Assembly: GCF_025353065.1 (NCBI RefSeq) | Contig: NZ_JANXRJ010000031.1 | Coordinates: forward strand, 18,938 to 82,937 | DNA from: Lapillicoccus sp. | GTDB lineage: Bacteria > Actinomycetota > Actinomycetes > Actinomycetales > Dermatophilaceae | Length of the DNA stretch: 64,000 nt | Direction: 5' to 3' | Shown here: in pieces, positions 96 to 64,000 of the stretch | Position numbering within the stretch: position 1 is the first letter of the stretch | Layout: every line of letters starts with the position of its first letter | Notes under the pieces: model-generated | Seen by the model: the letters and a program-made list of their open reading frames with translations, nothing else | Told to the model about the DNA's origin: nothing | The model's database searches: none | Position numbers and translations under genes: made by a program

Positions 96-890
96 GTGGC
101 CAAGAACACCCCCGACCGCCCGACCGAGCCCCCCTCCGGCCGTCCCCGTGCCGGCCGAGCCGGTACGTCGGACCGGCGGACCAAGCTCGCCGACCTCCAG
201 AAGGCGCAGAAGGCGCGCGAGCGGCGCACGGTCGTCCTCATCGTCTCGGCCTGTGCCGCACTGGTCCTCGTCCTCGGGGGGGTCATCACCTACGGCGTGA
301 TCGACGGGCGGAGCAAGACGCCGGCCAACTCGATCCTCAGCCTCGGCGTCACGTCGGCTGCGGCGTCGTGCGACGCCGTCACCACCGACAAGGCCACCGG
401 GAACAGCGACCACGTCGGACCTGGTACGAGCACCCCGCAGACGACGAAGGTCACCTACGCGACCGTCCCGCCGAGCAGCGGATCGCACTTCGTCCAGCCC
501 GACATCTCGGGCCGCGGCTACTACACGGCCACTGACACCCCCGCCGTCGAGACACTCGTCCACAACCTCGAGCACGGCTACACCGTGCTCTGGTATGCCC
601 CCGCCATGGCCAGCAACGCCGCCCAGCTCCAGCAGATGGCCGAGCTCGGAGCCAAGCTCGACCCCTCGTCCGGCAAGTTCATCGTCGCACCGTGGGACGA
701 GTCACGGGGCGCCTTCCCCGCCGGCAAGAGCTATGCCCTCGTCCACTGGTCCGCGACGGTCGCCGCATCCGGCGCGGTCGGCACCCAGGCCGGCCACCGC
801 CAGCTGTGCGGCGGACTGTCCGGCGAGGTCGTCTCCTCGTTCGTCACGAGCTACCCGAAGACCGACGCGCCTGAGCCCTACGGCGCCTGA
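96..890 (+). CDS. DUF3105 domain-containing membrane-anchored protein
   Basis: GTG start; N-terminal basic region plus one TM helix (VVLIVSACAALVLVLGGVI); LVHNLEHGYTVLWY motif typical of DUF3105. Confidence 0.75.
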   Translation: MAKNTPDRPTEPPSGRPRAGRAGTSDRRTKLADLQKAQKARERRTVVLIVSACAALVLVLGGVITYGVIDGRSKTPANSILSLGVTSAAASCDAVTTDKATGNSDHVGPGTSTPQTTKVTYATVPPSSGSHFVQPDISGRGYYTATDTPAVETLVHNLEHGYTVLWYAPAMASNAAQLQQMAELGAKLDPSSGKFIVAPWDESRGAFPAGKSYALVHWSATVAASGAVGTQAGHRQLCGGLSGEVVSSFVTSYPKTDAPEPYGA

Positions 891-893
891 GCC

Positions 894-1907
894 CTACGGC
901 GCGTGAGCCGCCCCGGGGCCGGTGCCCGTACCGGTCCCGGCGCTCGTCCCGTTGGCGGGGTCACCGGCCGCACCGGAGCCGGCGCTGGTGAGGAGCTGGT
1001 GCCGACGCGCATACGTCCACCCGGCGAATGCGGCGAGGACGTCGACGACGGTCACGACGAACCGCGAGAGGATCGCGACGGCAGCGGCGCCCGGGGTGGA
1101 CAGCGCCGAGCCGAGGACGAGGGTGAGCAGCCCCTCCCGGGCGCCGAGGCCGGCGGGCAGGATCACGGTGAGCGTGCCGAGCGACCCGGAGAGGGCATAC
1201 CCCGTGAGGGCGGCGGTCGTCAGGCCGGCGCCGGCGCCGGTCCCCCCCACGGCCCGGGCGAGCACGAGGAGATGGCCGCCGAAGCACAGCCACGCGAGGA
1301 TGTAGAGGCCGACGGTGAGCAGCACTGCGCGAGTGGAGAGCTCACGCTCGAGAGGCTCACGCCGCAGCACCCGCAGACCGAGAGCGACGACCCGGTTGAG
1401 GGTCGCCGGCCAGCACAGCACCAGCAGCACGACGAGACTCACGAGGAGGGCCGCCGAGAGCGGGGCTCCCCCGGTCCGGATGAGGTGCGGGACGGCCGGC
1501 AGGCCGACGAGCAGACCGGTGACGATCGAGAGGCCGATGGCCACCAGTCCGACGACACCGGTGCGTCGCCGGGGCACGCCGAGACGGCTGGCCATGTCGG
1601 CCTGCGCGACGACGCTCCAGACCGACCCCGGAAGGTACTTCCCCAGCTGCCCGACGAAGAAGACGCCCGCCGCCGGGGCGAGGTGCAGCGGTGAGCCGAG
1701 ATCCGTCAGCAGCACCCGCCAGCCGAGCATCGTGAGCAACGTGCCGACGGCCGCGAACAGCGTTGACAACGCGAGGGATCCGATATCGACCCGGGTGAGG
1801 TCGACCGAGATCTGCGACCAGGAACGGGCGACCCCCAGGACGACGACGGCGAGGACGAGCAGCGCGACGGCGACCCGGAGCAGGGAGAGGGCGCGGTCGC
1901 GGGTCAC
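894..1907 (-). CDS. lysylphosphatidylglycerol-synthase-like (UPF0104/flippase-like) integral membrane protein
   Basis: Only the C-terminal 337 codons of ORF 894..2591 look like protein (multi-TM, GQLGKYLPGSVWSVV motif). GTG at 1907 overlaps the stop of the upstream gene (GTGA, 1904-1907). Confidence 0.7.
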   Translation of the reverse strand: MTRDRALSLLRVAVALLVLAVVVLGVARSWSQISVDLTRVDIGSLALSTLFAAVGTLLTMLGWRVLLTDLGSPLHLAPAAGVFFVGQLGKYLPGSVWSVVAQADMASRLGVPRRRTGVVGLVAIGLSIVTGLLVGLPAVPHLIRTGGAPLSAALLVSLVVLLVLCWPATLNRVVALGLRVLRREPLERELSTRAVLLTVGLYILAWLCFGGHLLVLARAVGGTGAGAGLTTAALTGYALSGSLGTLTVILPAGLGAREGLLTLVLGSALSTPGAAAVAILSRFVVTVVDVLAAFAGWTYARRHQLLTSAGSGAAGDPANGTSAGTGTGTGPGAAHAP

Positions 1908-4105: not shown

Positions 4106-4984
4106 GTGACCCGCCGGACCGGGTCCCAGCGACTGGGCCGGGAGATCGGATGGGTACCGTCAGGCGTGCCCACCGAGCGATCCGTCCTGCCCGCCGACGT
4201 GCTGGCCACCGCGTTGCGTGCGGACGCGACACGCCCTCGCCTCACCTTCTACGACGACGCGGTGGGGCCGACCCGGGGTGAGCGGATCGAGCTCTCGGCC
4301 AAGGTGCTCACCAACTGGGTCGCCAAGGCGGCCAACGCCCTGCAGGAGGATCTCGACGTGACGTCGGGCAGCCGCGTGCTGCTCGACCTGCCGCTGCACT
4401 GGCGGGCGGTCTATTGGGCCTTGGCGGTGTGGTCGGTGGGCGCGACCCTCGTGCTGCCGGGAGCCGGCGACCGTGCCCCCAGCAACCGCGCCCCCAGCAA
4501 CCGCGGCCCCAGCACCGGCACTGTGGCTGATCTTGGCGGGGACATCGCCTTGGTCGTCAGCGACGACGTCACCGTCGTCGCGGGGGCGCACAGCTCAGGC
4601 ACGGGAGCGGTCCTCGTCAGTCTCCCGATGCTCGCCCGCGGGCACCTCGACACCCCCGGCGGCGTGTTCGACGAGGCACGTGAACTCGCTACGTACGGTG
4701 ACGTCTTCGACGCCTGGGAGTCCCCGTCTCCCGCCGCCGTCGCGCTCGTGGGGGCGGCGGGAGTGGCAGCCGGCCCGGCGGCATACGGCGCGCTGGTCGT
4801 GCCCCGACCCGAGTGGGGGGACCGCCCCCGGGTCGAGCTGGCGGGGACCCTCGACCGGGTGCTCGTCGACGCCCTCTCCGCCTGGTATGCCGACGGTTCG
4901 GTCGTCCTGGTCCGTGACCCGGACGGCGAGCAGCAGGCCCGTCGCACCTCCGAGGGTGTGACCGTCAGGCTGAGTGGGGGCTGA
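4106..4984 (+). CDS. TIGR03089-like actinobacterial conserved protein (acyl-CoA-synthetase N-terminal-like)
   Basis: RPRLTFYDD..GERIELSAKVLTNWVAKAANALQ pattern; found next to LCP genes in Actinobacteria (cf. Rv3268 by memory). Start uncertain. Confidence 0.6.
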   Translation: MTRRTGSQRLGREIGWVPSGVPTERSVLPADVLATALRADATRPRLTFYDDAVGPTRGERIELSAKVLTNWVAKAANALQEDLDVTSGSRVLLDLPLHWRAVYWALAVWSVGATLVLPGAGDRAPSNRAPSNRGPSTGTVADLGGDIALVVSDDVTVVAGAHSSGTGAVLVSLPMLARGHLDTPGGVFDEARELATYGDVFDAWESPSPAAVALVGAAGVAAGPAAYGALVVPRPEWGDRPRVELAGTLDRVLVDALSAWYADGSVVLVRDPDGEQQARRTSEGVTVRLSGG

Positions 4985-4986
4985 GT

Positions 4987-5631
4987 TCAGGCGGGGCCGA
5001 GGTCGACGGCGAAGACCGGTCCGGTCTTCTCGCGCACCTCGTGCACCGTGACCCCGTCGGCGAGCTCGCGCAGCACGAGGCCGCCGGGGGTGACGTCGAG
5101 GACGGCGAGGTCGGTGATGATCCGCTGGACGACGCGCCTGCCGGTGTAGGGCAGGGTGCACTCGTCGAGGATCTTATGGCTGCCGTCCCGGGCGACGTGC
5201 TCCATCAGGACGATGACCTTCCTCGCGCCGTGCACGAGGTCCATCGCGCCGCCCATGCCCTTGACCATCTTCCCAGGAATCATCCAGTTGGCGATGTCGC
5301 CCCCGGCGGACACCTGCATGGCCCCGAGGATCGCCGCATCGACCTTGCCACTGCGGATCATGCCGAAGGACATCGCCGAGTCGAAGATCGACGCTCCGGG
5401 CCGGAGCGTCACGGTCTCCTTACCGGCATTGACGAGGTCCGGATCTTCTTCTCCTGCATAGGGATAGGGCCCGACGCCGAGGATGCCGTTCTCGGACTGC
5501 AGGACGAGCTCGACGTCGTCGGGTACGTAGTTCGGGACGAGCGTCGGCAGCCCGATACCGAGGTTGACGTAGTCGCCGTCGGCCAGCTCGGCGGCGGCGC
5601 GGGCCGCCATCTGCTCGCGGGTGAGGGCCAT
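4987..5631 (-). CDS. scoB: 3-oxoacid CoA-transferase subunit B
   Basis: Full-length match to ScoB-type sequence ([20 protein letters not shown]). Confidence 0.9.
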
Positions 5632-5634: not shown

Positions 5635-6468
5635 TCAGACCTCCGTGGTCGGGCTCGAGGGGGCGGTGGTCGGTGGGGCGGTGGTCGGTGGGGCGGCGCG
5701 CGCAGGCCGGACCGTCCGCCGCTCGATGCGCTTGTCGGCCGCCTGCTCGGGCGTGAGCGGCAGGACCCGCTGCACGTAGATGCCGGGGAGGTGGATCTCG
5801 TCCGGATCGAGCTCACCCGGCTCGACGAGCTCCTCGACCTCGGCGATGGTGAGCTGCCCGGACATGGCCGCCACGGGATTGAAGTTGCGGGCCGACCTCT
5901 CGAAGACGAGGTTGCCGAGGCGGTCGCCCTTGCGGGCCCGCACGAGCCCGAAGTCGGCGACGATCGCGTGCTCGAGGACCACGGTGCGCGTCGACCCCAT
6001 CCACTCGACCTCCCGCGTCTCCTTCGGCGGCGACGCGAGAGCGACGGTGCCGTCGGCGGCATACCGCCAGGGCAGACCGCCCTCGGCGATCTGCGTACCC
6101 GCGCCGGTCGGCGTGAAGAACGCCGGGATCCCGGAGCCACCGGCGCGCAGTCGCTCCGCGAGGGTGCCCTGGGGGGTGAGCTCGACCTCGAGCTCGCCGG
6201 TGAGGTACTGACGCTCGAACTCCTTGTTCTCCCCGACGTAGGAGGAGACCATCCGCCGGATCCGCTTGGCCCGAAGCAGCAGGCCGAGACCCCAGTCGTC
6301 GACCCCGCAGTTGTTCGAGATCGCCTCGAGGTCGGTGATACCGGCGTCGAGCACGGCCCGGATGAGCACGCTCGGGATCCCGCAGAGGCCGAACCCGCCC
6401 ACCGCGATCGAGGCCCCGTCGGTGATGCCCGCGATGGCCGCTGCCGGGTCTGCGACGACTTTGTCCAT
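5635..6468 (-). CDS. scoA: 3-oxoacid CoA-transferase subunit A
   Basis: ATG at 6468 (MDKVVADPAAAIAGI..GGFGLCGIP..); only the 3' 834 nt of the 1068-aa ORF is real; Pro/Thr-rich repeat tail. Confidence 0.9.
   Translation of the reverse strand: MDKVVADPAAAIAGITDGASIAVGGFGLCGIPSVLIRAVLDAGITDLEAISNNCGVDDWGLGLLLRAKRIRRMVSSYVGENKEFERQYLTGELEVELTPQGTLAERLRAGGSGIPAFFTPTGAGTQIAEGGLPWRYAADGTVALASPPKETREVEWMGSTRTVVLEHAIVADFGLVRARKGDRLGNLVFERSARNFNPVAAMSGQLTIAEVEELVEPGELDPDEIHLPGIYVQRVLPLTPEQAADKRIERRTVRPARAAPPTTAPPTTAPSSPTTEV
5661..5690. repeat. 15-bp perfect tandem duplication (gggcggtggtcggtg x2) encoding PPTTA x2 at the scoA C-terminus
   Basis: Read directly. Confidence 0.9.
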
Positions 6469-6588: not shown

Positions 6589-8073
6589 GTGACGAGCCGT
6601 GATCCGGGGTCCGACAAGGCCCGCCCCATCCCGCAGGCGCGGGCCGGGCGGTCCGAGCACGTCGACCGCTGGAACGACGACGTCGGGGACGAGTCCTCGT
6701 TCGACGCCGACGGAGCCTCGTGGGACGACGACTTCGTGGTCGACACCCGGCGCCGCGGGAAGCGTTTCGCCGCTGCCGGCCGGTCCCGGGCGGCGCAGCC
6801 GACCCTGGCCCCCGCCCACCATGTGCCCGCCAGCGAGCCAGCCCGTCCGGCCGCGCGCCAGGCACCGTCGGGGCCGCTCTACGAGGAGGACGCGGACTAC
6901 GTCCCCGGGCAGGCCCGCGGCCGACGTACCGACCCTGGTCCCGACGCCCGACCGAACGCCCGACCGAACGCCAGCCCCGACGCCCGACCCGACGCCCGAC
7001 CCGGCGCTCGACCGAACGTCCGACCCGACGATGGGCGTGGGTATGCCGGTGAGCCTCCGACCCGTGGCCCCCGGCCTCCGCGCCGCCGCAGCCGGGCGCG
7101 TCGACGCGGGATCATCGCCGTCATCCTGCTCGTCGTCCTGGCCTGGATCGCGTTCATGGTGTGGGTGCCGCTCAACGCCTGGGGCAACGTCACCCGGGTC
7201 GACGACGCACCGGCAGGCGCTCGCCCGGCCGCCACGGCCGGGCACAACTACCTGCTCGTCGGCAGCGACGGGCGCGACGGTCTCACGCCCGAGCAGCAGA
7301 AGCAGCTGAACGCGAGCGGCGGTGACATCGGCAAGCGGACCGACTCGATCATCCTCGTCCACGTCTCCGAGCACGGCGGCAAACCGGCGCTCATCTCGAT
7401 CCCCCGCGACTCCTACGTGCCGATTCCCGGCTACCGGAGCAACAAGATCAACGCCTCCTTCGCCTTCGGCGGCGCCAAGCTGCTCGTCGCGACGGTCGAG
7501 CAGGCCACCGGGATCCGCATCGACGGCTACGTCGAGATCGGGTTCGGCGGCTTCGCCTCGGTCGTCGACAGCCTCGGCGGCGTCGACGTCTGCGTCCCCT
7601 TCGACATGAACGACGCCTACGCCGCGATCAACCTCAAGAAGGGTTGCCAGACCCTCGACGGCCCGACCGCGCTCGGCTACGTCCGCGCTCGCCACTCCGA
7701 CCCCCGCGGCGACATCGGCCGCGCCGAGCGTCAGCGGCAGTTCCTCGGCGCGATCCTGAAGAAGGCGGTCACGCCGTCGACGGTGCTGGTGCCGTCGAGC
7801 TACAAGGGTTTCGCCGACGCCGCCGCCAAGGGGCTCGAGGTGGGCCAGGACACCCAGATGACCGACGCCGTCCGCGTGCTCCAGACGCTCCGCGGGGTCG
7901 ACGGGGGCGACACCCTCTCCCTGGTCGTCCCCATCGCGAACGCCGCCTACCAGACCCCCAACGCCGGGGTCGCGGTGAAGTGGAACACCACCGAGGCGCT
8001 GGCCCTCTTCGCGATGATCAAGAACGACCAGCCGATGACCGTGGCGCCGGCGGGCACCGTCCCCGGGAGCTGA
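6589..8073 (+). CDS. LCP (LytR-CpsA-Psr) family cell-wall glycopolymer transferase
   Basis: Cytoplasmic repeat-rich N-terminus, one TM helix, then LCP core (NYLLVGSDGR..RTDSIILVHV..ISIPRDSYV..INASFAFGG..GYVRARH). GTG 6589 chosen after a GGAAAG purine tract. Confidence 0.8.
   Translation: MTSRDPGSDKARPIPQARAGRSEHVDRWNDDVGDESSFDADGASWDDDFVVDTRRRGKRFAAAGRSRAAQPTLAPAHHVPASEPARPAARQAPSGPLYEEDADYVPGQARGRRTDPGPDARPNARPNASPDARPDARPGARPNVRPDDGRGYAGEPPTRGPRPPRRRSRARRRGIIAVILLVVLAWIAFMVWVPLNAWGNVTRVDDAPAGARPAATAGHNYLLVGSDGRDGLTPEQQKQLNASGGDIGKRTDSIILVHVSEHGGKPALISIPRDSYVPIPGYRSNKINASFAFGGAKLLVATVEQATGIRIDGYVEIGFGGFASVVDSLGGVDVCVPFDMNDAYAAINLKKGCQTLDGPTALGYVRARHSDPRGDIGRAERQRQFLGAILKKAVTPSTVLVPSSYKGFADAAAKGLEVGQDTQMTDAVRVLQTLRGVDGGDTLSLVVPIANAAYQTPNAGVAVKWNTTEALALFAMIKNDQPMTVAPAGTVPGS
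6946..7029. repeat. 12-bp tandem repeat x7 (gcccgaccgaac-like) encoding ARPN/ARPD tetrapeptides in the LCP N-terminus
   Basis: Read directly. Confidence 0.85.
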
Positions 8074-8128: not shown

Positions 8129-8887
8129 TCACGTCTGCAGCGCCCGGCTGATCGCCCGCGCCGTCGTCTGGACGGCGTGGTCGAAGGGGCGCAGGTCGGG
8201 GCTGCCGCCGGGGATGACGATGGACACCGCGGCGACGACGTCACGGTGCTCGTCGCGCACGGGCGCGGCCACGCCCGCCCGGAAGTAGGGCAGGTGCTGC
8301 TCGCTGCTGATGAAGCCGTCGCGCCGCACGGACGCCAGCCGACGACGCAGTTGCGCAGGGGTGGTGATGGTGTCGTCGCCGCGCCCCGGGTCGAACACCC
8401 GGAGCGCTTCCTCCTGCACCGCCACGGGCGCGTAGGCGAGCAGCAGGACCCCGGCACCGGTCGCGTCCAACGGCGTTCGCGCCCCCACGGTGTGCAGGAC
8501 GGGCAGCGCCTCGTGCGCCGACAGCCTCTCGACCAGCACCGCCTCCTGACCTTCGCGGACCGTGAGCTGCACGTGCTGGCGGGTGACGAGGAGCAGGTCC
8601 TCCATGAAGGGGAGCGCGACGCGGCGCAACCCGTGTCCGCGTGGTGCCAGGGCGGCATACTCCAGGAGGCGGACGCCGATGCTGTAGGTGCCGTCCTCCG
8701 CTCGTTGGAGGGCACCCAGCCCCACGAGCTGGCGGGCGAGGCGCAGGGTGGTGTTGGCGGGCAGCGAAGCGCGTTGGGCGAGCACTCCGAGGGGAAGCGC
8801 GACGTCGTCGGGGCTGAAGGCACCCAGAACCGCGAAGGCACGCTCGAGGACCCCTGATCGGGGGGCCTGCTCGACGGGTTCTGTCAT
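8129..8887 (-). CDS. IclR family transcriptional regulator
   Basis: ATG 8887 (MTEPVEQAPRSGVLERAFAVLGAF..); IclR HTH plus effector domain; divergent from the monooxygenase operon. Confidence 0.85.
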   Translation of the reverse strand: MTEPVEQAPRSGVLERAFAVLGAFSPDDVALPLGVLAQRASLPANTTLRLARQLVGLGALQRAEDGTYSIGVRLLEYAALAPRGHGLRRVALPFMEDLLLVTRQHVQLTVREGQEAVLVERLSAHEALPVLHTVGARTPLDATGAGVLLLAYAPVAVQEEALRVFDPGRGDDTITTPAQLRRRLASVRRDGFISSEQHLPYFRAGVAAPVRDEHRDVVAAVSIVIPGGSPDLRPFDHAVQTTARAISRALQT

Positions 8888-8925: not shown

Positions 8926-8994
8926 GGATCACCAGCCTAGCGTGAGGAACACAGCCGGACGGCTGCGAACCCTGACCACCAAGGCGGCCCCGAT

Positions 8995-10122
8995 ATGGCT
9001 CATCCCTCCAACGCACTGATCATCGGCGGCGGGATCGCCGGCCTGTCCGCGGCCATCGCCCTCTCCCGGGTGGGGGTGCGGTGCGACGTCGTCGAGCTCG
9101 CCGACGAGGCGCCCCCCGGCGCCTCGGTCTCGATCTCCGGCCGGGCGGCCGAGGCACTCGACGAGCTCGGCGTCTATGCGGAGTGCTACGCGAACGGCAC
9201 ACCCTTCACGGACTCGTCCTCGCTCACCCAGATGGACTCCGCCGGGCACGTCACCAGCGCGGGCCCGGGCCTCCCGCAGTGGCCGGGCGCCAAGACGGCG
9301 ATCGGCATCTACCGGCCCGTGCTGCTGCGCATCCTCGCCGACGCCGCCCGCGGTCTCGGTGTCACCATCCGAAGCGGCGTGACCCTCGTGTCCGCGGACG
9401 AGCGCGCCGACGGGTCTCTCGTGACGACCAGCGACGGCGAGCAGCAGTGCTACGACCTGGTCGTCGGGGCCGACGGCATCGGCTCCACCACCCGCTCCGA
9501 CCTCTTCCCGGACGCTCCCGGACCCACCTACTCCGGCCAGATCAGCCTGAGGTGGATGGCCCCGGGACCCCCCGTCGCCGACCAGGGCTGGTATCACGGA
9601 CCGGTCGGGAGGCTCGGTTTCTACTCCCTGCCTCAGGACCTCGTCTACCTCCCCGCCGTCGTCGACGCGCCCGATCGGACCCACCTGACCGACGACGACG
9701 TCCACGCCCTGTTCACCGAGCTCCTCGACTCCTACACCGCTCCGGCCGTCGTCGAGCTGCGCCGGCGGTTGACGCCGGACGCCGAGGTGATCTGCCGTCC
9801 TTTCGACTGGATCCTCGTCCCCGACCGGTGGCACCGTGGTCGCACGATCCTGATCGGCGACGCGGCGCACGCCACGACCGCCCACCTGGGTCAGGGCGCC
9901 GGGATGGCACTGGAGGACGCCGTGGTCCTGGCGCAGTGCGTCTCCACCTCCGCGACGCTGTCCGAGGCGTTCGAGGCGTTCATGACGCGGCGATACGACC
10001 GGGTCCGCACGGTCGTGGAGACGAGCGTTGCGCTCTCGCGGCTCGAGCAGGAGGGCTCTGCCCCGAGGGAGAACGTCGCCGTGATCCAGACCGCGCTGCA
10101 GACGCTCGCCCAGCCCTACTGA
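8995..10122 (+). CDS. FAD-dependent aromatic-ring monooxygenase (salicylate/3-hydroxybenzoate hydroxylase-like)
   Basis: GGGIAGLSAAIAL dinucleotide fold, DLVVGADGIGS, GDAAHATTAHLGQGAGMALED motifs. Confidence 0.85.
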   Translation: MAHPSNALIIGGGIAGLSAAIALSRVGVRCDVVELADEAPPGASVSISGRAAEALDELGVYAECYANGTPFTDSSSLTQMDSAGHVTSAGPGLPQWPGAKTAIGIYRPVLLRILADAARGLGVTIRSGVTLVSADERADGSLVTTSDGEQQCYDLVVGADGIGSTTRSDLFPDAPGPTYSGQISLRWMAPGPPVADQGWYHGPVGRLGFYSLPQDLVYLPAVVDAPDRTHLTDDDVHALFTELLDSYTAPAVVELRRRLTPDAEVICRPFDWILVPDRWHRGRTILIGDAAHATTAHLGQGAGMALEDAVVLAQCVSTSATLSEAFEAFMTRRYDRVRTVVETSVALSRLEQEGSAPRENVAVIQTALQTLAQPY

Positions 10123-10174
10123 GCCTCACCCATCCGTATGCCGTTGTCAGACTGAGGAATTCAGAGGCACGACC

Positions 10175-15219: not shown

Positions 15220-15374
15220 TACTCAGGCGGCCGCCGACGAGTCCCACTGTCACAAAACGCCGCTCGTCAACGCGCCACCAACGGGACACAGGACCGGCAC
15301 CAGTTCGGTATGCCGCCCCAGCGGCCGGACATACCGGGCACGTGCCGTTCCTGCGTCCCCGCCGCGACGCCCTC

Positions 15375-16550: not shown

Positions 16551-16642
16551 CTTCGGAGGTTACTCCCCGGTATGCCGCGGGCCCACCGCCGCGGGTGTGG
16601 CCCGCCTCACCCTCTGCCGAGGACTCCTCGGCCGGGCCACCG

Positions 16643-49713: not shown

Positions 49714-49763
49714 GCGCCTACCGTATGCCGTGTCGGCTGGCGGAAGGCCCACGGGTGCGGCCC

Positions 49764-52148: not shown

Positions 52149-54403
52149 CGACGACCACCCCGGCCCCGGCCATCAGGCCGGCCGCTCCTTCCAGGCCCCG
52201 CCCGCACGCCCCGGAGTCCGGCCCCTGGGTCGGACGTCCGGTCGACCGCCGTGACGGCCCGACCAAGACCACGGGCACGGCGACCTTCTCGGCGGAGTAC
52301 CAGCTGCCCGACCTCGCCCACGGCTGGCTGGTCCACGCGCCCATCGCCCGAGCCCGCATCACGGCGATCGACGACGCGGCCGCGCGCGCCCATCCCGGCG
52401 TCCTGACCGTGCTCAGCCACCTCAACACCCCGCGCCTCAAGCCCTCACCGGCCCGACCCAGCCTCCTCGACATGAGCACGATGGTCGGGGGCACCAGGGT
52501 CGACTACCTCGGCACCGACGAGGTCTTCTTCGACGGACAACCCGTCGCCGTCGTGGTCGCCGAGTCGCTCGAGGCCGCGCAGTATGCCGCCTCCCTCGTC
52601 CAGGTCGACTACGCGCCGCTCCCGGCCACCATCGACTTCGCCGCCGCGGCCGCGGCCGGACGCGCGACTCCCGTCAAGCAGTCGCTCGGCATGCCGACGC
52701 TCGTCGGATCGGTGGGTGACGCCGACGCCGCCCTCGGCCGGGCCGCCCATGTCGTCGACCTTCACTTCACGACGCCGGGCCACAACCACAACGCTCTCGA
52801 GCCGCACGCGACGACTGCCGTGTGGGACGGCGACCGGGTGACCGTCTGGGACGCCACCCAGGGCATCGACTGGTTCCGGAAGCACCTCGCGCTGCGCTTC
52901 GACGTCCCCGTCGAGTCGGTTCGGGTCATCGCTCCCTTCGTCGGTGGCGGCTTCGGCGGCAAGGGCAGCGTCTGGGCCGGGACCCTCCTGACCGTCCTCG
53001 CGGCCCGGGTCACCGGGCGGCCGGTGCGGATGGCGCTCAGCCGCGAGGCGGTCAACCGGGTCGTCGGTGGGCGGACCCCGACCCGGCAGCGGGTGGCTCT
53101 CGGCGCTGACGCTGACGGACGCCTCACGTCCGTCATCCACGAGGCGGTGCTGCGCAACTCGCCGGTGGGAGGCGGCCCCGAACAGGTCGTCGGAGCCAGC
53201 GGCGACCTCTACGCCTCACCCCACGTGCGGCTCGTCACCTCGATGGTCACCCTCGACCTCGTGCCCAACACCTTCATGCGGGCCCCCGGTGAGTCGACCG
53301 GCTCCTTCGGGCTCGAGTCCGCCGTCGACCAGCTCGCCCACGACCTCGGTGTCGACCCCTTGGAGCTGCGCCTCCGCAACGAGCCCGAGACATCGGCGCT
53401 CCACCATCGCGCCTTCTCGCACCGACGGATCCGCGAGCTCCTCCACGTCGGCGCCGAGGCGTTCGGCTGGGCGGACCGGACCCCGGGCGGCCGGCGCGAC
53501 GGCAGCCAACTCGTCGGCCACGGCTTGGCCCTTGCCTACCACCCCGCCTGGGAGTTCCCCGCCAACGTCACGCTGCTCCTCCGCCGAGACGGCACGGCCC
53601 TGCTGCGCTGCGGTTTTCAGGAGATGGGGATGGGCACGGCCACGGTCCAGGCGCAGGTCGTCGCCGACGCGCTCGGGATCCCGTTCGACGCGGTCCACGT
53701 CGACTACGGGGACAGCGACCTGCCCATCGCCCCCAACGCCGGTGGGTCGACCCAGTCGGCCAGCATCGCCGCTGCCGTGCTGCGGTCGGCCGCGAAGCTG
53801 CGGCGCGCGGTGAGCCAGCTCCACCAGCGCCCCGGAGAGTCGCTCGCGCAGACCCTGACCCGAGTCGGACGCGATGTCGAGGTGTCGGTGGGCTCGGACG
53901 TCGGGGTCGGCGCCGCGGCCACGTCGGTGCGCTTCATCGCCACCACCCTGCTGAACCAGCGCCGCTGGGTGAGGGCCGCCTCGGGAGCCCACTTCTGCGA
54001 GGTGCGGGTCGACGCCGACACCGGCGAGGTCCGGGTGACCCGCTGGGTCGGTGCCTTCGACATCGGCACCGTCCTCAACGCCAAGACGGCCGCGAGCCAG
54101 CTGCGCGGCGGCATCGTCATGGGCCTCGGGCTGGCCCTCACCGAGGAGACGGTCGTCGACGGACGCACCGGCCGGATCATGAACGCCGGCCTCGCCGAGT
54201 ACCACGTGCCCACCCACGCCGACGTCCCCCACATCGACATCCACCTGCTCGACGACCCTGACCCGACGATGCCGCTCGGCGTCCTCGGCGCCGGCGAGGT
54301 GGGCATCACCGGCGTCGGTGCCGCGATCGCGAACGCCGTGTTCGACGCCACCGGGCGCCGGGTCACCGACCTGCCGCTCACCCTCGACCGGGTGGCCCCC
54401 TGA
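52145..54403 (+). CDS. molybdopterin-binding large subunit (xanthine dehydrogenase/aldehyde oxidase family)
   Basis: ATGA overlap; 752 aa; GGGFGGK and EMGMGT-type motifs. Confidence 0.88.
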   Translation: MTTTTPAPAIRPAAPSRPRPHAPESGPWVGRPVDRRDGPTKTTGTATFSAEYQLPDLAHGWLVHAPIARARITAIDDAAARAHPGVLTVLSHLNTPRLKPSPARPSLLDMSTMVGGTRVDYLGTDEVFFDGQPVAVVVAESLEAAQYAASLVQVDYAPLPATIDFAAAAAAGRATPVKQSLGMPTLVGSVGDADAALGRAAHVVDLHFTTPGHNHNALEPHATTAVWDGDRVTVWDATQGIDWFRKHLALRFDVPVESVRVIAPFVGGGFGGKGSVWAGTLLTVLAARVTGRPVRMALSREAVNRVVGGRTPTRQRVALGADADGRLTSVIHEAVLRNSPVGGGPEQVVGASGDLYASPHVRLVTSMVTLDLVPNTFMRAPGESTGSFGLESAVDQLAHDLGVDPLELRLRNEPETSALHHRAFSHRRIRELLHVGAEAFGWADRTPGGRRDGSQLVGHGLALAYHPAWEFPANVTLLLRRDGTALLRCGFQEMGMGTATVQAQVVADALGIPFDAVHVDYGDSDLPIAPNAGGSTQSASIAAAVLRSAAKLRRAVSQLHQRPGESLAQTLTRVGRDVEVSVGSDVGVGAAATSVRFIATTLLNQRRWVRAASGAHFCEVRVDADTGEVRVTRWVGAFDIGTVLNAKTAASQLRGGIVMGLGLALTEETVVDGRTGRIMNAGLAEYHVPTHADVPHIDIHLLDDPDPTMPLGVLGAGEVGITGVGAAIANAVFDATGRRVTDLPLTLDRVAP

Positions 54404-55708: not shown

Positions 55709-58191
55709 ATGCGGGTGCGGGTGATCACCGACCGGTTGACCCCAACGGGTGACGTGCTCGTCCCAGACGTGCCCGGGTCGAGGCTGCCCCGCCTACGCCG
55801 ACGACGTCGGATCGTGGTGCGGGGCGTGGTGCAGGGCGTGGGCTTCCGGCCACACGTCCTGCGGCTCGCCGAGGCGCTCGGCCTCGAGGGGACCTGTCGC
55901 AACGACGCCACCTGTGTCGTGATGGAGGTCGGGGGCGACGCCGACCACGTCGACGCCTTCGCCCGCCGACTCGAGTCGGAGGCACCACCCCTGGCCCGCA
56001 TCCTCTCGGTCGAGGCCGTCGACCTCGATCTCCTCGACGACGACGACGACACTCCCATGGAGACAACGGGATTCACCATCACCGCATCGACGACCGGGCC
56101 CGGCGCCCGGACCATGGTGCCGCCCGACACCGCCGTCTGCGCCGACTGCCTGGCGGAGATGCGCGACCCGGAGGACCGGCGCTACCGGCACCCGTTCATC
56201 ACCTGCACCAACTGCGGCCCCCGGTTCACGATCACCCGCGACCTCCCCTACGACCGACCGGCCACCACGATGGCCGCCTTCCCCCTCTGCGGCGCCTCTG
56301 CCGCGGAGTATGCCGACCCCCACGACCGTCGTCACCACGCCCAGCCCATCGCCTGCCACGACTGCGGGCCGACGCTCCGGGTCCTGTCGTCCCGTGGGGC
56401 CGAGATCGCCTCCGGCAGTGAGGAGTCCGTCCGCGCTACCGTCGCGGCCCTGCGGGACGGAGCCATCGTCGCGGTCAAGGGCATCGGCGGCTACCACCTG
56501 GTCTGCGACGCGACCTCGGGCACGGCGGCGACCGTGCTGCGGGCCCGCAAGCACCGACCCGACCAGCCGTTCGCGGTCAGGGTCCGCGACCTCGCCACCG
56601 CGGCAGATCTCGTCCACGTCGACGGCGCCGAGACCCTGCTGACCTCGTCCGAGCGCCCGATCGTGCTCCTCCGGCGCCGGGCCGGGGCCCCCGTCGCGGA
56701 GTGCGTCGCGCCCGGGCTCGACGACCTCGGCGTCCTGCTGCCCTACGCGCCGCTCCACCACCTCCTCTTCGCCGACCTGCCCGACGGTTCCCCGGGCACG
56801 CCCGAGTCGTTGGTGATGACCTCGGGCAACCTCTCCGGCGAGCCGCTGTGCTTCGAGGACGCCGAAGCGGTGGCCCGCCTCGGCGGGATCGCCGACCTCT
56901 TCCTGACCCACGACAGGGAGATCGCCGTCCCCTGCGAGGACTCGGTCGTCGCCTGGCACGAGGGCGAGGTGCTGCCCATCCGTCGCTCCCGCGGATATCG
57001 CCCCTCCCGGTCGTCCTCGGCCACGACACCGATCTCGTCCTGGGCGCCGCGTCGGGCGTCGTCCTCGCCGCCGGCGCCGAGGTCAAGAACACCTTCGCGC
57101 TGGCCCGTGACGGGATGGCCTTCGTCTCTGCGCACCTCGGCGACCTCGGCTCGCTCGAGAGCCGCACGGCATACGGACGGGCGACGGCCCAGCTGCTCCG
57201 GTTCCACCGCAGCACACCGGAGGTCGTGGTGGCCGACCTCCACCCCGGGTATGCGTCCCGGGCCTGGGCCCGTGACCTCTCGCGTGAGCTCGGGGTCCCG
57301 CTCCACGGAGTCCAGCACCACCACGCCCACCTCGCGTCGCTCGCCGCCGAGCACGGGCGGCTCGACGACCCGGTGCTGGGTGTGGTCTACGACGGCACGG
57401 GCTACGGCTGCGACCGGTCGGTATGGGGCGGTGAGCTGCTCCTCCTCGGTGACCGTGGCCTGAGCGCGACCCGCCTCGGCCACCTCGGGGTCGTCCGGCT
57501 CCCCGGCGCCGACGCCGGCGTGCGCAACCCCGTGCGCACCGCTGCGCTGGCGGTGCTCGCCGCCGGCGAGGACTGGGTCGGCACCCCGCTCGACCCGGCG
57601 CTCACCGATACCGAGAAGCGAGCTCTCCCGGCCCTGCTCGCATCCGGCACGAGCATCGTCCCCACGAACAGCGTCGGCCGGCTGTTCGACGTCGTGGCCG
57701 CGTTGCTCGGCGTCCGCGCGAGGGTCAGCTATGAGGCGCAGGCTGCCGTCGAGCTCGAGGTGGCAGCGCGGCGGTGGCACGAGCGGCCCGACCCACTCCC
57801 GACGCAGGTCCCCCTGTCCCTGCCCGTGGTCGTTTCCGCGACGACCGGCCTGCCGAGCCTCGACCCCGATCCACTCGTCCGCGGCCTCGTCGCGGCGGTC
57901 CGCGACGAGGTCCCCACCGGACTGCTCGCGTGGTCGTTCCACGTCGCCCTCGCAGCCGCGACGACCGGGCTCGCGGCGGAGCAGGCGACGGCTCGAGGGG
58001 TCCGGACCATCGGGCTCTCCGGAGGCGTCTTCGTCAACCGGCTGCTCGTGACCCTGGTCCGTGACGCTCTGACCGACCGTGGCTTCGAGGTGCTGACCCA
58101 TCGGCTCGTGCCGGCGAATGACGGCGGTCTGTCCCTCGGCCAGGTGGCGGTCGGTGCCAGACTCCTCGCATCACGACACGGAAGGTCCTGA
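55709..58191 (+). pseudogene. hypF: carbamoyltransferase HypF, reading frame broken at the C4 run 57001-57004
   Basis: Acylphosphatase domain, zinc fingers and YrdC part are in the frame of ORF 55424 up to IRRSRGY. The Kae1-like part ([17 protein letters not shown]..) is in the frame of ORF 56701..58191. Confidence 0.85.
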
Positions 58192-58796: not shown

Positions 58797-59893
58797 AGTA
58801 CCTCGACGAGTTCAGCAACCCCGACCTCGCTCGCAGGCTGCTCGACCAGATCCACGCGGTCACCACCCGGCCGTGGGCGTTGATGGAGGTCTGCGGCGGC
58901 CAGACCCACTCGATCATCCGCCACGGCATCGACCAGCTCCTCCCCGAGGGGATCGAGATGATCCACGGCCCCGGCTGCCCCGTCTGCGTCACCCCGCTGG
59001 AGATCATCGACAAGGCCTTGGCGATCGCCGAGCAGCCGGGCGCCATCTTCTGCTCCTTCGGCGACATGCTCCGGGTGCCCGGCAGCGGCCAGGACCTGTT
59101 CTCCATCAAGAGCGCCGGCGGCGACGTCCGCGTCGTCTACTCCCCTCTCGACGCCCTCAAGCTCGCTCGCGACAACCCCGACCGGCAGGTGGTCTTCTTC
59201 GGCATCGGCTTCGAGACGACGGCGCCCGCCAACGCGATGACGGTCTACCAGGCTCGCCGCCTCGGCATCCACAACTTCTCGCTGCTCGTCTCCCACGTGC
59301 TCGTCCCTCCGGCGATGGCCGCGATCATGGAGTCGCCGAGCTGCCGGGTGCAGGGCTTTCTCGCCGCTGGGCACGTGTGCAGCGTGATGGGCACGTCGGA
59401 GTATCCGCCGCTGGCCGAGAGGTACCGCGTGCCCATCGTCGTCACCGGTTTCGAGCCGCTCGACATCCTCGAGGGGATCCGGCTGACCGTGACCCAGCTC
59501 GAGCAGGGGCGCCACGAGGTCGAGAACGCCTACTCGCGTGCCGTCACCGCCGAGGGCAACCTCCCGGCGATGGCGATGCTCCGGGACGTCTTCGAGGTCA
59601 CCGACCGGACCTGGCGAGGCATCGGCATGATCCCGCAGAGCGGGTGGAAGCTTTCCGAGCGGTATGCCGACTTCGACGCCGAGAGCAGGTTCTCCGTCAC
59701 CGATATCCATACCGAGGAGTCCTCGCTGTGCCGGGCGGGTGAGGTCCTGCAGGGTCTCATCAAGCCGCACGAGTGCGCCGCCTTCGGCAAGGACTGCACG
59801 CCGCGCAACCCGCTCGGCGCGACGATGGTGTCGTCGGAGGGCGCGTGCGCGGCCTACTTCACCTACCGCCGCCTCGAGCTGGTCCAGAGCTGA
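58793..59893 (+). CDS. hypD: hydrogenase formation protein HypD
   Basis: [27 protein letters not shown] motifs; ATGA overlap with hypC. Confidence 0.92.
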
Positions 59894-60883
59894 TGGGCGA
59901 GCGGACAGGCGGGCCGAACGGCATACGGGACATCGGGGCCCACGTGCTCGACGTCGAGGGCTGGACGTGCCCGCTCCCCCTGCGGGACACCCCGACGATC
60001 GTCATGGGCCACGGCGGCGGCGGCGCGATGTCGTCCGAGCTGATCGAGCAGCTCTTCCTGCCGGCCTTCGGCGGAGCCGCCCGACCTCGCCGTCAACGGC
60101 ACCGTCAACGACCTCGCGATGGCGGGCGCGACCCCCCTCTACCTCTCGACGGCGTTCATCCTCGCCGAGGGCACGGCCCTGACCGACATCGCCCGCGTCG
60201 CGATAGCCATCGGCAAGGCCGCCGAGGTCGCGGGCGTGCAGCTCGTCACCGGCGACACCAAGGTCGTCGACAGTGGCAGCGGCGACGGCATCTACATCAA
60301 CACAGCGGGGATCGGCGTGATCCCCGACGGGATAGACATCGGGCCGACCCGCGCCCGGATCGGTGACGCCGTCCTCATCAGCGGCGACATCGGGGTCCAC
60401 GGCATCGCCGTGATGAGCTGCCGCGAGGGCATCGAGTTCGGCACGAGCATCGAGAGCGACACCGCGCCGCTGCACTCCCTGGTGGCCGACATCCTCGCGA
60501 CCGGCGCCGACATCAAGGTCCTCCGGGACCCCACCCGGGGAGGGGTGTCGGCGACGCTCAACGAGATCGCCAAGGCGTCGGGGGTCGGCATCGAGGTGGT
60601 CGAGCGCGACTTCCCGATCCCGCCCGAGGTGCGGGACGCCTGCGGGCTGCTCGGGCTCGACCCGCTTCAGGTGGCCAACGAGGGCAAGCTCGTCGCCATC
60701 GTGCCGGCCGACCGCGCCGACGAGGTGCTCGCGGCCATGCGTTCGCACCCGCTCGGGGTCCGGGCCTGCCGCATCGGCACCTGCGTGCCGGAGCATCCGC
60801 GGATGGTCGTCGCTCGCACCGGGCTCGGCGGCACCCGCGTCATCGACCTGCCCATCGGCGAGCAGCTGCCGCGGATCTGCTGA
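59893..60883 (+). pseudogene. hypE: HypE with an internal out-of-frame deletion of ~40 codons near 60072-60084
   Basis: N-terminus (..MGHGGGGAMSSELIEQLFLPAFGG) jumps directly, in another frame, to DLAVNGTVNDLAMAGATPLYLS. The conserved AF(S/T)TDS..FFPGG segment is absent. The C-terminus is intact to PRIC. Confidence 0.8.
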
Positions 60884-61649: not shown

Positions 61650-62714
61650 ATGCGGTCCCACTGCGCCATCTACGTCGACGTCGGATACCTCCTCGCGTCG
61701 GCCGCCACCCGCGTCACCGGGACCTCGCTGCGCAGCGCGGTCGTCATCTCCTACCCCGACCTCGTCACCCGGCTGATCGCCCAGGCCGAGACCCTGAGCG
61801 GCCTGCCCGCCCTGCGCGTCCACTGGTACGACGCCGGCACGCGCGGCTCCGGCGGACCGAGCCAGGAGCAGAACGCCATCGGGATGCTCCCGCGCGTCAA
61901 GCTGCGGCTCGGCCGCACCTCACCCAACGGCGAGCAGAAGGGCGTGGACCTGCGGATCGGCCTCGACCTCGCCTCCCACGGCCGCGGACGGGTCGTCGAC
62001 GTCATCTACCTCGTGTCGGGCGACGACGACCTCACCGAGGCCGTCGAGGAGGCACAGAGCCACGGGGTGCAGGTCGTCGTCCTCGCCGTGCCCGACGCCA
62101 ACGGCAGGCCCTACGCCGTGTCGAGCCACCTCATCCGCGAGTCCGACGGCATCGTCACGATCGACTCCACGATCATCGATGAGACGGTGCACGTCCGACA
62201 GCGGGCCGAGGAGCCCCTCCCCGCAACGGTTCCCGTCTCAGTGGCAGCCGGTGAGCAGCAGCCCGACGCCGGTCCCGTCCTGGCCCGACCGGACGTCCCG
62301 ACGCCCGCCGACCTCGCCCGTCCCAAGCCCCGCGTCCCGGCCCTCGCGTCGCACCACCCGGTCATGCCCGCGGCGCCCGCACCCTCCGGACCGGCCGCCG
62401 GTCGGACCCTCGTCTACTCCAGCTCCAGCGGCGGCGACTCGGGCTACCGGACCGGGCTGACCGCGGCCGAGCGCGACCTCATCGACGAGGTCTGCCACGG
62501 CGTCGTCGCGACGTGGGCCGCGACCGCGACCGCGGCCGACCGCGCAGGCCTGCTCAGCGAGAAGCCCTACATCCCGAGCGATCTCGACCGGACGCTGCTG
62601 ACCGACCTCTCGGCCCGGCTCGGCGTCTACGACATCAACGACGAGGCGCGCGGTGACCTGCGGGAGAGCTTCTGGGACGCCGTCGCGGAGGCCTTTCCCC
62701 GCGGTCATGCCTGA
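61650..62714 (+). CDS. NYN (LabA/DUF88-like) domain protein with a long Pro-rich linker and a C-terminal domain
   Basis: [35 protein letters not shown] nuclease-fold motifs. Confidence 0.8.
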
Positions 62715-62764
62715 CCGGTGGCCTCCGACCGCCATCCGACCGGGCTGACGCTAGGCTCCGAGCC

Positions 62765-64000
62765 ATGCCGCAGATCTCCAAGGTGCTGATCGCCAACCGG
62801 GGCGAGATCGCCGTCCGTGTCGCCCGCGCGTGCAAGGACGCGGGCTATGCCTCCGTCGCCGTCTACGCCGACCCCGACCGCGACGCCCTCCACGTCCGGG
62901 TCGCCGACGAGGCCTACGCCCTCGGCGGCTCGACCCCCGGCGAGAGCTACCTCGTCCAGGACAAGATCCTCGAGATCGCCAAGCAGTCCGGCGCCGACGC
63001 GGTCCACCCCGGCTACGGCTTCCTCAGCGAGAACGCCGGCTTCGCCCAGGCCGTGCTGGACGCCGGGCTGATCTGGATCGGCCCGGGCCCGCAGGCCATC
63101 GACTCGCTGGGCGACAAGGTCAAGGCCCGGCACATCGCGACGAAGGCCGGTGCGCCGCTCGTGCCCGGCACGAAGGACCCGGTCGAGGGTCCCGACGAGG
63201 TCGTCGCCTTCGCGAAGGAGCACGGCCTCCCCGTCGCCATCAAGGCGGCATACGGCGGGGGCGGTCGCGGCCTCAAGGTCGCCCGGACGATCGAGGAGAT
63301 CCCCGACCTCTACGAGTCCGCCGTCCGCGAGGCGGTCACGGCCTTCGGTCGCGGCGAGTGCTTCGTCGAGCGCTTCCTCGACCACCCGCGCCACGTCGAG
63401 ACCCAGTGTCTCGCCGACATTCACGGCACCGTCGTCGTCGTCTCGACGCGCGACTGCTCGCTGCAGCGGCGCAACCAGAAGCTCGTCGAGGAGGCCCCCG
63501 CGCCCTTCCTCACCGACCACCAGCACGCCGAGCTCGTCCGCGCCTCGAAGGCGATCCTCTCCGAAGCGGGCTACACCGGCGCGGGGACGTGCGAGTTCCT
63601 CGTCGGACCTGACGGTGTCATCTCGTTCCTCGAGGTCAACACCCGCCTCCAGGTCGAGCACCCGGTCTCCGAAGAGGTCACGGGAATCGACCTCGTCCGC
63701 CAGCAGTTCCGGATCGCCAACGGCGAGGCCCTCGGCTTCGACGACCCCGAGCCGCACGCCCACTCGATCGAGTTCCGCATCAACGGCGAGGACGCTGGGC
63801 GCGGCTTCCTGCCCGCGCCGGGCACCGTGGTGCGCTACCTCCAGCCCTCGGGTCCCGGCGTGCGGGTCGACTCCGGCGTGGTCGAGGGCGATGTGATCGG
63901 CGGGGCGTTCGACTCGATGCTCGCCAAGCTGATCGTCACCGGACGCACCCGGCAGGAGGCCCTCGAGCGCGCCCGCCGCGCCCTCGACGAGTTCGTCGTC
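62765..64000 (+). CDS. accA3: acetyl/propionyl-CoA carboxylase alpha subunit (biotin carboxylase domain), 3' end outside the window
   Basis: [44 protein letters not shown]; open to the window end. Confidence 0.92.

Follow-up and report, generated by a model that had tools for sequence, protein, structure and literature searches.

A dispersed octamer with orientation-specific spacing in the genomes of some Intrasporangiaceae

An over-represented octamer in a metabolic region

The window analysed here, 64 kb of contig NZ_JANXRJ010000031.1 from the soil actinobacterium Lapillicoccus sp., has a G+C content of 72 % (A 14.5, C 37.2, G 34.5 and T 13.8 %). Its genes are those of ordinary actinobacterial metabolism, including F420-dependent enzymes, acyl-CoA carboxylase subunits, a rhodanese and hyp genes. 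The PccB protein encoded in the window places it in the Intrasporangiaceae (order Micrococcales), with 91 % identity to a metagenome-assembled genome (MAG) and 86-88 % identity to Terrabacter and Intrasporangium. Searches of the window for tRNAs and Rfam families gave zero matches. Scattered over these genes and the spaces between them is the octamer that is the subject of this study, CGGCATAC, which reads GTATGCCG in the other orientation.

A preliminary description of the sequence had counted 57 copies of the heptamer GGCATAC/GTATGCC and 54 copies of the octamer. Our recount returned the same numbers, with 30 heptamers on the + strand and 27 on the - strand, and with 28 octamers on + and 26 on -, so that both orientations are indeed equally frequent. 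The positions given there were also right for all copies but two, which were off by one (10136 instead of 10137, and 38506 instead of 38505). Base composition alone predicts 2.15 octamers, in agreement with the earlier estimate of about two and hence an excess of some 25-fold. In 100 dinucleotide-preserving shuffles the expectation fell to 0.76 +/- 0.83 with a maximum of 3, against which the 54 observed copies are a 70-fold excess. The motif accounts for 57 of the 89 CATA tetramers in the window, where GCGGCATAC is present 30 times. The related word CGGCGTAC, which had been called almost absent with two copies, occurs three times (39522, 47151 and 58202), and this is the level expected by chance (3.3 by shuffles).

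Occurrence and dialects in related genomes

For comparison, 80 genome loci around pccB were examined (designated by L numbers). The octamer is dense in many of them: MAG L001 has 12 copies in 12.8 kb, two Knoellia loci have 16 in 21.5 kb and 10 in 14 kb, two Terrabacter loci have 7 and 9, and MAG L015 has 16, while MAGs of Ornithinibacter and Nostocoides carry it as well. In Terrabacter, Knoellia and Intrasporangium-like MAGs it reaches 7-20 copies per 10 kb. The pccB loci of Janibacter, Marihabitans, Oryzobacter and Phycicoccus jejuensis have zero copies. Overall, 336 kb of strongly motif-bearing loci contain 9.69 copies per 10 kb, and 204 kb from motif-free members of the family contain 0.10, roughly 100-fold fewer. 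When metagenomes were scanned with the DUF885 protein, many contigs from SPAdes, MEGAHIT and JGI turned out to carry 7-20 copies per 10 kb and hardly any CGGCGTAC. A search with HypD, in another neighbourhood, added one motif-bearing locus (Knoellia, L274) and one contig of a close strain; HypD is conserved too strongly, or has been transferred too widely, for a larger yield (it is 90 % identical to Nocardioides). Among the 40 matches listed in the search for plasmids of the same hosts there was no Intrasporangiaceae plasmid, and viral contigs scanned for inverted motif pairs gave, among the matches listed, chance ones in mid-GC contigs. CGGCATAC is a genuine, lineage-specific and genome-wide DNA signal in a subset of the Intrasporangiaceae.

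Some lineages use a different form of the word. In L009, a Phycicoccus MAG, the dialect CGGCATTC occurs 18 times against a background of 0.2. The dialect CGGCATCC is enriched 4-6-fold in the Ornithinibacter-like loci L010 and L011 and in L015; the Ornithinibacter-like genomes have 8-11 per 10 kb versus a baseline of about 1.8, and in L015 the ATAC and ATCC forms stand side by side. From these differences we infer that the specificity of the motif evolves, position 7 being A, C or T depending on the lineage. In a neighbour-joining tree of PccB, which as a single-gene tree has low resolution, the motif-bearing lineages are patchily distributed: the window, L001, Terrabacter and Intrasporangium form one group with Nostocoides nearby, and Knoellia and L015 with L010 lie apart. 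This patchiness suggests either ancestral presence followed by loss or replacement, or transfer of the reader.

Another dispersed word, GCGAAGGGG, was seen in the Janibacter/Marihabitans-like loci L014, L016, L114 and L118, with 22-31 copies per 21 kb versus about 1.4 in the background. It lies on both strands with unrelated flanks and its orientations do not alternate (z about 0). This word may serve the motif-free branch of the family as a signal of its own, either unrelated to CGGCATAC or replaced.

The motif is not a sequencing error

The preliminary description had raised the possibility that the octamer is an error of base calling: in a long-read assembly, a methylated motif would have been misread systematically, and the true sequence would be CGGCGTAC. 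Two independent assemblies overlap the window. One, L272, is an NCBI MAG contig (GCA_043726735.1) that is 99.8 % identical to the window and indel-free; each of the six copies that the window has between 46461 and 49871 is preserved in it. The other, L273, is a 79-kb MEGAHIT contig assembled from short reads (k141_4626007, ENA ERZ27314308); it is about 99 % identical to the window and keeps all eight copies between 49723 and 63246, with none of its approximately 146 differences falling in a copy. All 14 overlapping copies therefore read CGGCATAC, and the two assemblies together have about 160 differences from the window with zero in a copy. This enrichment also appears in contigs from SPAdes, MEGAHIT and JGI, in GTDB genomes and in isolates that belong to other genera.

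A hint towards the substitution had been taken from sseA, where DWRTDL was expected in place of the encoded DWHTDL. Solved rhodanese homologues, M. tuberculosis SseA (3hzu) included, read DWHTDLN, and because this motif is conserved the His codon CAT at 44522-44524 is genuine. What does speak for base-calling trouble is that the window seems to carry single-base deletions of the long-read type. Relative to L273 it is one base short at 56998, 58274 and 61483, the last in a C-run; the deletion at 56998 splits hypF (from frame 2 to frame 1, at about 57000) and that at 61483 splits a DUF6390 gene (from frame 1 to frame 3, at about 61485). An earlier remark on frameshifts in this DNA was thus probably correct. 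These deletions resemble indel errors left over from long reads, unless the two genes are true pseudogenes in this strain, and the 30 kb with synteny to other genera showed no frameshifts. They are irrelevant to the motif. As the octamer is unchanged in short-read and independent assemblies at 99-99.8 % identity, the idea of a base-calling artefact is refuted and we regard it as practically impossible. A pattern of rare codons in a long-read assembly need not mean error.

Two further differences between the assemblies were noted. The window and L273 differ by an additional 3 nt at 56030-56032, and between the genes for a siderophore-interacting protein and tryptophan dioxygenase there is an intergenic structural difference of about 20-40 bp between window positions 46579-46620 and L272 positions 5231-5254, where the ends of the alignments overlap.

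Each orientation forms a regular series

The copies had been described as fairly evenly spaced. This does not hold for the pooled sites (coefficient of variation (CV) 0.87, p=0.18), and it does hold for each orientation on its own (- strand CV 0.48, p=1e-4; + strand CV 0.72, p=0.046), with one copy about every 2 kb per orientation within the window. The two orientations also take turns along the DNA. In the window there are 39 orientation runs versus 28.0 expected (p=0.0016), and across 21 non-redundant loci 224 neighbours alternate and 106 share their orientation, where 171 alternating neighbours are expected. As many sites are shared by descent, the 373 sites were collapsed into 201 orthologous groups, which left 271 unique neighbouring pairs. 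Alternation persisted in 184 of these 271 pairs (p=8e-8) and, when every pair seen in the window was left out, in 146 of 218 (p=5e-6). Neighbours more than 300 bp apart still alternate (141 of 210).

The distances between copies account for this pattern. Among pairs less than 600 bp apart, 51 have the same orientation versus 96 expected, and 115 have opposite orientations versus 101 expected. Same-orientation copies are depleted within about 1 kb, whereas opposite-orientation copies are at or slightly above expectation; neighbours alternate because copies of the same orientation avoid each other over this distance and opposite ones do not. This shows that the two orientations are separate, individually regular series that are placed independently of each other.

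The orientation of a copy bears no relation to gene direction or to replication. Pooled over the loci, 93 copies are co-oriented with their gene and 80 are opposite to it, which is unbiased, and 141 lie on the G-rich and 133 on the C-rich strand. The window has no clear switch in GC skew. The split between orientations is 50:50 locally and in every locus examined, and these loci show none of the replichore skew of FtsK-orienting polar sequences (KOPS) or architecture imparting sequences (AIMS). Whatever reads CGGCATAC thus appears to distinguish its orientations while being blind to the directions of replication and transcription.

As a control we used the proto-site GCNTAC, which represents generic Ala-Tyr and Tyr-Ala. 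It does not alternate in motif-bearing or in motif-free genomes (z=-0.3). Unconverted GC[CG]TAC in motif-bearing genomes shows the complementary bias, that is, anti-alternation (z=-3.0). As the generic proto-site is flat and the unconverted one anti-alternates, the proto-sites that became motif were chosen with orientation-specific spacing.

In the motif-free loci (L005, L007, L012, L014, L016, L017 and others), GGC[CG]TAC alternates mildly, with 63 versus 36 pairs (z=2.4), a marginal value from one of several tests. It could be a relic of CGGCATAC copies that decayed after loss of the system.

Conservation exceeds the background and deamination does not explain the motif

Retention of the motif between motif-bearing genomes was compared, in four bands of alignment identity, with that of other octamers and of its one-mismatch neighbours. 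At 70-76 % identity 37 % of motif copies are retained, against 14 % of other octamers and 7 % of one-mismatch neighbours; at 76-82 % these values are 48, 22 and 15 %, at 82-90 % they are 80, 35 and 35 %, and at 90-97 % they are 99, 69 and 72 %. Judged from these alignments, CGGCATAC is strongly maintained by evolution at the DNA level. The same type of conservation evidence has been used to argue for selection on the cyanobacterial highly iterated palindrome 1 (HIP1) (PMC5861425).

It had also been proposed that the octamer arose in evolution where methylated GTACGCCG sites underwent C-to-T deamination. The 24 one-mismatch neighbours of the motif sum to 9.3 per 10 kb in motif-bearing and 8.1 in motif-free loci. 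In line with deamination, CGGCGTAC is somewhat depleted in motif-bearing genomes (0.59 versus 0.88 per 10 kb in motif-free ones), the form CG-GCG-TAC is missing from the window genes, and CGGCGTAC is among the sequences found at orthologous positions. However, the product stands at 9.7 and the precursor at 0.9 per 10 kb, so that even complete conversion of CGGCGTAC would account for fewer than one copy in ten. At orthologous positions the motif-free relatives have CGGCCTAC, CCGCCTAC, CGACCTAC and CGGCGTAC as well as more distant sequences; as the precursor is as often one of the first three as it is CGGCGTAC, transversions and double changes are needed. Moreover, CGGCGTAC still stands at 17959 and 34713 in other motif-bearing genomes, and deamination predicts neither conservation above background nor alternation of orientations. 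We therefore see next to no likelihood that the motif is a deamination footprint.

Placement in coding and intergenic DNA

Aligned over 351 sites, the core of the motif is exactly 8 bp long, with a weak preference for C at -2 and for a purine at -1 and nothing downstream. Two reading frames dominate within genes. Among 173 pooled sites that are confidently coding, 78 read CG-GCA-TAC and 75 read G-TAT-GCC-G, together 153. Either frame makes position 5 a third codon base that can change synonymously, and the codons GCA and TAT used there are otherwise rare. The frame usage described earlier was seen again in the window, where 20 of 44 frame-assigned sites are G-TAT-GCC-G and 13 are CG-GCA-TAC. 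The statement that Tyr in this context is always TAT is nearly right, G-TAT-GCC-G occurring 14 times in the window, but there are two exceptions with G-TAC-GCC-G. For CG-GCN-TAC, the window has GCA 13 times, GCC 6 times and GCG 0 times. The dipeptides Tyr-Ala and Ala-Tyr are 1.5x and 1.3x over expectation in the window. Within coding sequence, CGGCATAC thus sits mostly at the least-cost positions, Ala-Tyr and Tyr-Ala.

Approximately one fifth of the copies are intergenic, and several of these lie just past stop codons (10136, 15308, 24234, 37045 and 49723). A significantly stable hairpin was found for one of eight intergenic copies, the one at 15308, and no excess of terminator-like sites was found.

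Several other origins were rejected. A by-product of codon or dipeptide usage does not fit copies that occur on both strands and between genes, with rare codons used only within the full octamer and with the GCNTAC control behaving differently. A mobile element or longer repeat does not fit unrelated flanks that share only the weak preference at -2 and -1, and an RNA-level element does not fit the zero Rfam and tRNA matches and the unbiased gene orientation. Finally, terminator-pair architecture was rejected on the grounds of the single significant hairpin among eight copies and the lack of excess terminator-like sites.

Comparison with known genome-wide words

Chi sites are asymmetric words of 5-8 nt that are recognised in one orientation, over-represented and taxon-specific (bioRxiv 10.1101/2020.08.13.249359). 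Like them, CGGCATAC is short, asymmetric, over-represented and embedded in coding sequence, and it differs by single bases between taxa. Unlike them, it is unpolarised, with equal and interleaved orientations, it occurs about once per kb with roughly 100-fold enrichment, and it has no known cognate enzyme. The DNA uptake sequences (DUS) of Neisseriaceae and uptake signal sequences (USS) of Pasteurellaceae resemble it in density (about 1 per kb), in enrichment of roughly 100-fold or greater, in the absence of skew, in one-base dialects, in a preference for permissive frames that measurably affects the proteome and in intergenic excess. They differ in that CGGCATAC is 8 bp long almost without flanking consensus and rarely lies in terminator hairpins, in that its same-orientation copies avoid each other while opposite ones do not, and in that competence is not known for its host family.

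HIP1 (GCGATCGC) and HIP1-like cyanobacterial octamers are 15-300-fold enriched, occur about once per gene, are conserved beyond codon usage and have lineage-specific variants that replace one another, all of which recalls CGGCATAC; the function of HIP1 is unknown. HIP1 is palindromic, hence without orientation, and is linked to cognate methyltransferases, whereas CGGCATAC is asymmetric and its orientation matters. KOPS, SpoIIIE recognition sequences (SRS) and AIMS, which orient FtsK/SpoIIIE, are likewise 8-bp asymmetric words and are read by a directional DNA translocase, but they are strongly skewed toward dif in each replichore, unlike the 50:50 split of CGGCATAC. An asymmetric, unskewed word with about 100-fold enrichment and two orientation-specific regular series fits none of Chi, DUS/USS, HIP1 and KOPS. 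Full-text searches of the literature turned up neither the octamer in this context nor an uptake sequence or Chi for Intrasporangiaceae.

Few functional words are spread over whole genomes, Chi, DUS/USS, KOPS and HIP1 being examples, and every one of them has revealed something basic about how cells recombine DNA, exchange genes or handle their chromosomes. For Actinobacteria no such word is established, and an AdnAB/RecBCD equivalent of Chi, uptake specificity and strand discrimination in mismatch repair are open there. If such a role were true for CGGCATAC, it would be the first Chi-like or uptake-like signal in this phylum. With a defined 8-mer, natural dialects and motif-free sister lineages, comparative genomics should be able to find the reader protein, and the orientation-specific spacing statistic may help to sort other unexplained hyper-abundant motifs. 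The motif may also be of practical use for binning or recognising DNA of these lineages and for flagging foreign DNA.

Possible function

That the octamer is a biological signal of the uptake, recognition or nucleoid type had already been suggested, and this suggestion is supported and sharpened by the orientation-specific spacing. The layout points to a reader that would be polar, either seeing one strand or moving one way along the DNA, and for such a reader the genome would need separate coverage in each direction. By analogy with Chi, we tentatively favour a role in the control of end-resection or recombination, although we put its probability somewhat below even. A helicase-nuclease that processes DNA ends, of the AdnAB or RecBCD type, would track in from an end, recognise the octamer, stop degrading the DNA and turn to recombinational repair. 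Where a break has two ends, or where a linear fragment from the same species enters the cell, one correctly oriented copy would be needed on each side. With one oriented copy required per end, equal numbers of the two orientations, no replication skew, independent phases and diminishing returns from a second nearby copy of the same orientation would follow.

Several points weigh against a Chi-like role. Every characterised Chi site is polarised toward the leading strand (bioRxiv 10.1101/2020.08.13.249359), while CGGCATAC is unpolarised in the window (28+/26-) and in the pooled loci (141 versus 133). Its density and enrichment are far above those of E. coli Chi, with its one copy in about 5 kb (bioRxiv 10.1101/2020.08.13.249359). 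The spacing does not single out which polar machine reads the octamer, and among the window genes there is no candidate reader gene, a methyltransferase gene included. To our knowledge, no Chi has been defined for actinobacterial AdnAB. All comparison loci represent two or three syntenic neighbourhoods, though the ancestry-collapsed test holds.

The main rival explanation, which we consider somewhat less probable, is uptake or transfer of DNA, in which competent cells or a conjugative translocase of double-stranded DNA would prefer fragments with CGGCATAC and molecular drive would accumulate the motif. The density of about 1 per kb, the roughly 100-fold enrichment and the absence of strand bias in replication and transcription would all be expected of such a signal; the one-base dialects between related genera recall Neisseriaceae (PMC3630211), and the permissive frames with some amino-acid cost resemble USS and DUS (PMC2817400), as do the intergenic copies over-represented right after stop codons. 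Among Micrococcales, M. luteus is naturally transformable, with Flp/Tad pili and ComEA/ComEC (PMC6370729, PMC12849477), but within this order competence is known only for that species (PMC6370729), and neither competence nor uptake bias is known for Intrasporangiaceae. Uptake sequences are unreported in the literature for any Gram-positive bacterium or actinobacterium. Known uptake sequences act independently of orientation (PMC1939737), so that all nearby copies should be redundant, yet only same-orientation copies of CGGCATAC avoid each other. Uptake could therefore possibly fit the orientation data only with strand-specific recognition, for example on the entering single strand. The lone significant hairpin among eight intergenic copies, that is, no terminator-pair architecture, and the lack of an extended flanking consensus beyond the weak C at -2 and purine at -1 also speak against it. 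We think it improbable that the octamer is instead a methylation-linked mark of strand or self, targeted by a strand-specific Type III/IIG-like or orphan adenine methyltransferase, whose transient unmethylated state a repair or defence system would use to tell new strands from old, or self from foreign. As each daughter duplex could be marked only by copies of one orientation, each orientation would need regular coverage, and by analogy with GATC, Dam and MutH such a system would require equal numbers, no skew and regular spacing per orientation. An asymmetric word that contains A and quickly changes its specificity by single bases, as in restriction-modification, would suit it too. As far as we know, Actinobacteria lack MutS/MutL, and how mismatch repair tells the strands apart there is open. 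Nonetheless, no known methylation target is 100-fold enriched in its host, the window carries no methyltransferase gene and the proposal is entirely hypothetical. More doubtful still is a nucleoid-structuring or other protein-binding site that occurs at high density, as HIP1 does, and is read without direction: hyper-abundance and conservation beyond codon usage match reports on HIP1 (PMC5861425), but CGGCATAC is not palindromic, and a reader blind to orientation cannot explain repulsion limited to same-orientation copies.

More broadly than the Chi-like role, these data raise the proposition, for and against which we find the chances evenly balanced, that Intrasporangiaceae carry a previously unrecognised recognition system that spans the genome. 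It would combine a fast-evolving octamer code (CGGCATAC, CGGCATCC, CGGCATTC and possibly, in Janibacter and Marihabitans, the unrelated GCGAAGGGG) with two independent strand-specific regular series and a polar reader, through which DNA would be labelled as self when it is recombined, repaired or taken up.

Individual copies in the window

Copies in the Ala-Tyr frame (CG-GCA-TAC) begin with 4779-4786 (+) and 12851-12858 (+). They continue with 17045-17052 (-) in a short-chain dehydrogenase/reductase (SDR) gene (-) and with 18371-18378 (-), where CGGCCTTC and CCGCCTTC in relatives point to an origin in two steps. The copy at 20004-20011 (-), in a purK-like gene, is also present in Knoellia, L010 and L015, and the motif-free relatives have CGGCCTAC or CGGCGTAC there; those at 23940-23947 (-) and 25941-25948 (-) are shared with L001, L004 and L018 and with L001, L003 and L004, respectively. 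A TldD-like gene (+) holds 29426-29433 (+), and the DUF885 gene holds 34079-34086 (+), which is CCGCCTAC or CGGCCTAC in motif-free relatives, and 34331-34338 (+). Further Ala-Tyr copies are 38506-38513 (-) in a gene on the - strand, 57167-57174 (+) in hypF and 63246-63253 (+) in a biotin carboxylase gene, the last two being the same in L273.

Tyr-Ala copies (G-TAT-GCC-G) on the + strand lie in genes on the - strand at 6057-6064, at 8653-8660 (IclR-type gene), at 16433-16440 (acyl-CoA dehydrogenase gene), at 16819-16826 (the SDR gene), at 17959-17966 (F420 oxidoreductase gene; CGGCGTAC in most relatives), at 32360-32367 (TPR gene) and at 43701-43708. Two more such copies, at 46860-46867 and 46947-46954 in the tryptophan dioxygenase gene (-), are the same in GCA_043726735.1. 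The copy at 25988-25995 (+) is 47 nt from the opposite-orientation copy at 25941. On the - strand, Tyr-Ala is found at 28677-28684 in the TldD-like gene (+), at 31106-31113 and at 45360-45367 in a gene on the + strand. In the DUF885 gene, the site at 33723-33730 (-) was made by an amino-acid change, relatives having His-Asp or His-Glu, and that at 34713-34720 (-) is CGGCGTAC or CGGCGTAG in relatives. Those at 52582-52589 (-) in a molybdopterin oxidoreductase gene, at 56308-56315 (-) in hypF and at 59662-59669 (-) in hypD are the same in L273.

Rare frames are used at 12351-12358 (-; GGT-ATG-CCG, Gly-Met-Pro) and, in a carboxyltransferase gene, at 40493-40500 (-; CGG-CAT-AC, Arg-His-Thr). The frame is ambiguous at 4885-4892 (-), 7041-7048 (-) and 39801-39808 (+), and 21059-21066 (+), which is also present in L001 and L006, is at a gene end or ambiguous. 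Gene junctions hold 41248-41255 (-), 41302-41309 (+; also in Knoellia L006) and 59919-59926 (+; hypD/hypE, same in L273). The copy at 46461-46468 (+) is in the 3' part of the gene for the siderophore-interacting protein and is the same in GCA_043726735.1, and 49871-49878 (+) is inside a TetR gene and the same in L272 and L273.

Between genes, 10136-10143 (-) follows the stop codon of the gene at 8941-10122 by 14 nt, 24234-24241 (+) follows that of a cyclase gene by 16 nt, 37045-37052 (+) follows that of an antiporter gene by 7 nt, and 49723-49730 (-), which is the same in L272 and L273, follows that of the TetR gene by 34 nt. The copy at 15308-15315 (-), downstream of the acyl-CoA dehydrogenase gene, is in the sole significantly stable hairpin (z -4.9), where it pairs with a degenerate inverted copy. 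Downstream of pccB, 28416-28423 (+) has an inverted partner at 28455-28462 (-), and the hairpin that they could form is not significant. Two - strand genes flank 16570-16577 (-), and 47497-47504 (-) is intergenic and the same in GCA_043726735.1. The copies at 37537-37544 (+) and 37551-37558 (+) are units 1 and 2 of a tandem duplication of the 14-nt sequence GGACGCGGCATACG, and 37584-37591 (-), intergenic and upstream of maf, is inverted relative to the second. This duplication (37530-37558) places two copies 14 nt apart, the closest same-orientation pair in the window.

A gene for a DUF222 protein lies at 13843-15222 (-), in a 2.5-kb stretch without the motif (12858-15308) that is too short to show depletion in mobile DNA. 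In actinobacteria, the DUF222 family is often tied to HNH endonucleases and mobile repeats.

Other repeated words in the comparison loci

CGGCGTAC itself is 3-5-fold over the pooled background in L074, L053, L060, L078, L026, L029 and L032, which are Nocardioides- and Geodermatophilaceae-like and belong to more distant actinobacteria. It reaches 29 copies in 21.5 kb of L074 without alternation of orientations, and may be either an effect of codon usage (TAC-GCC) or a separate signal. Knoellia sp. CPCC 206435 (L006) has five near-identical palindromic boxes of 22 nt, TTCGTGACCAATTGGTCGAAAG, in two groups (11850-11990 and 13720-13800) with a spacing of 54-56 bp. These boxes look like repeated operator sites of a regulator and are unrelated to the octamer. 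In the Streptomyces loci L041-L043, L047 and L048, the palindrome CCGTACGG and its neighbour GCCGTACG are 4-6-fold over the pooled background.

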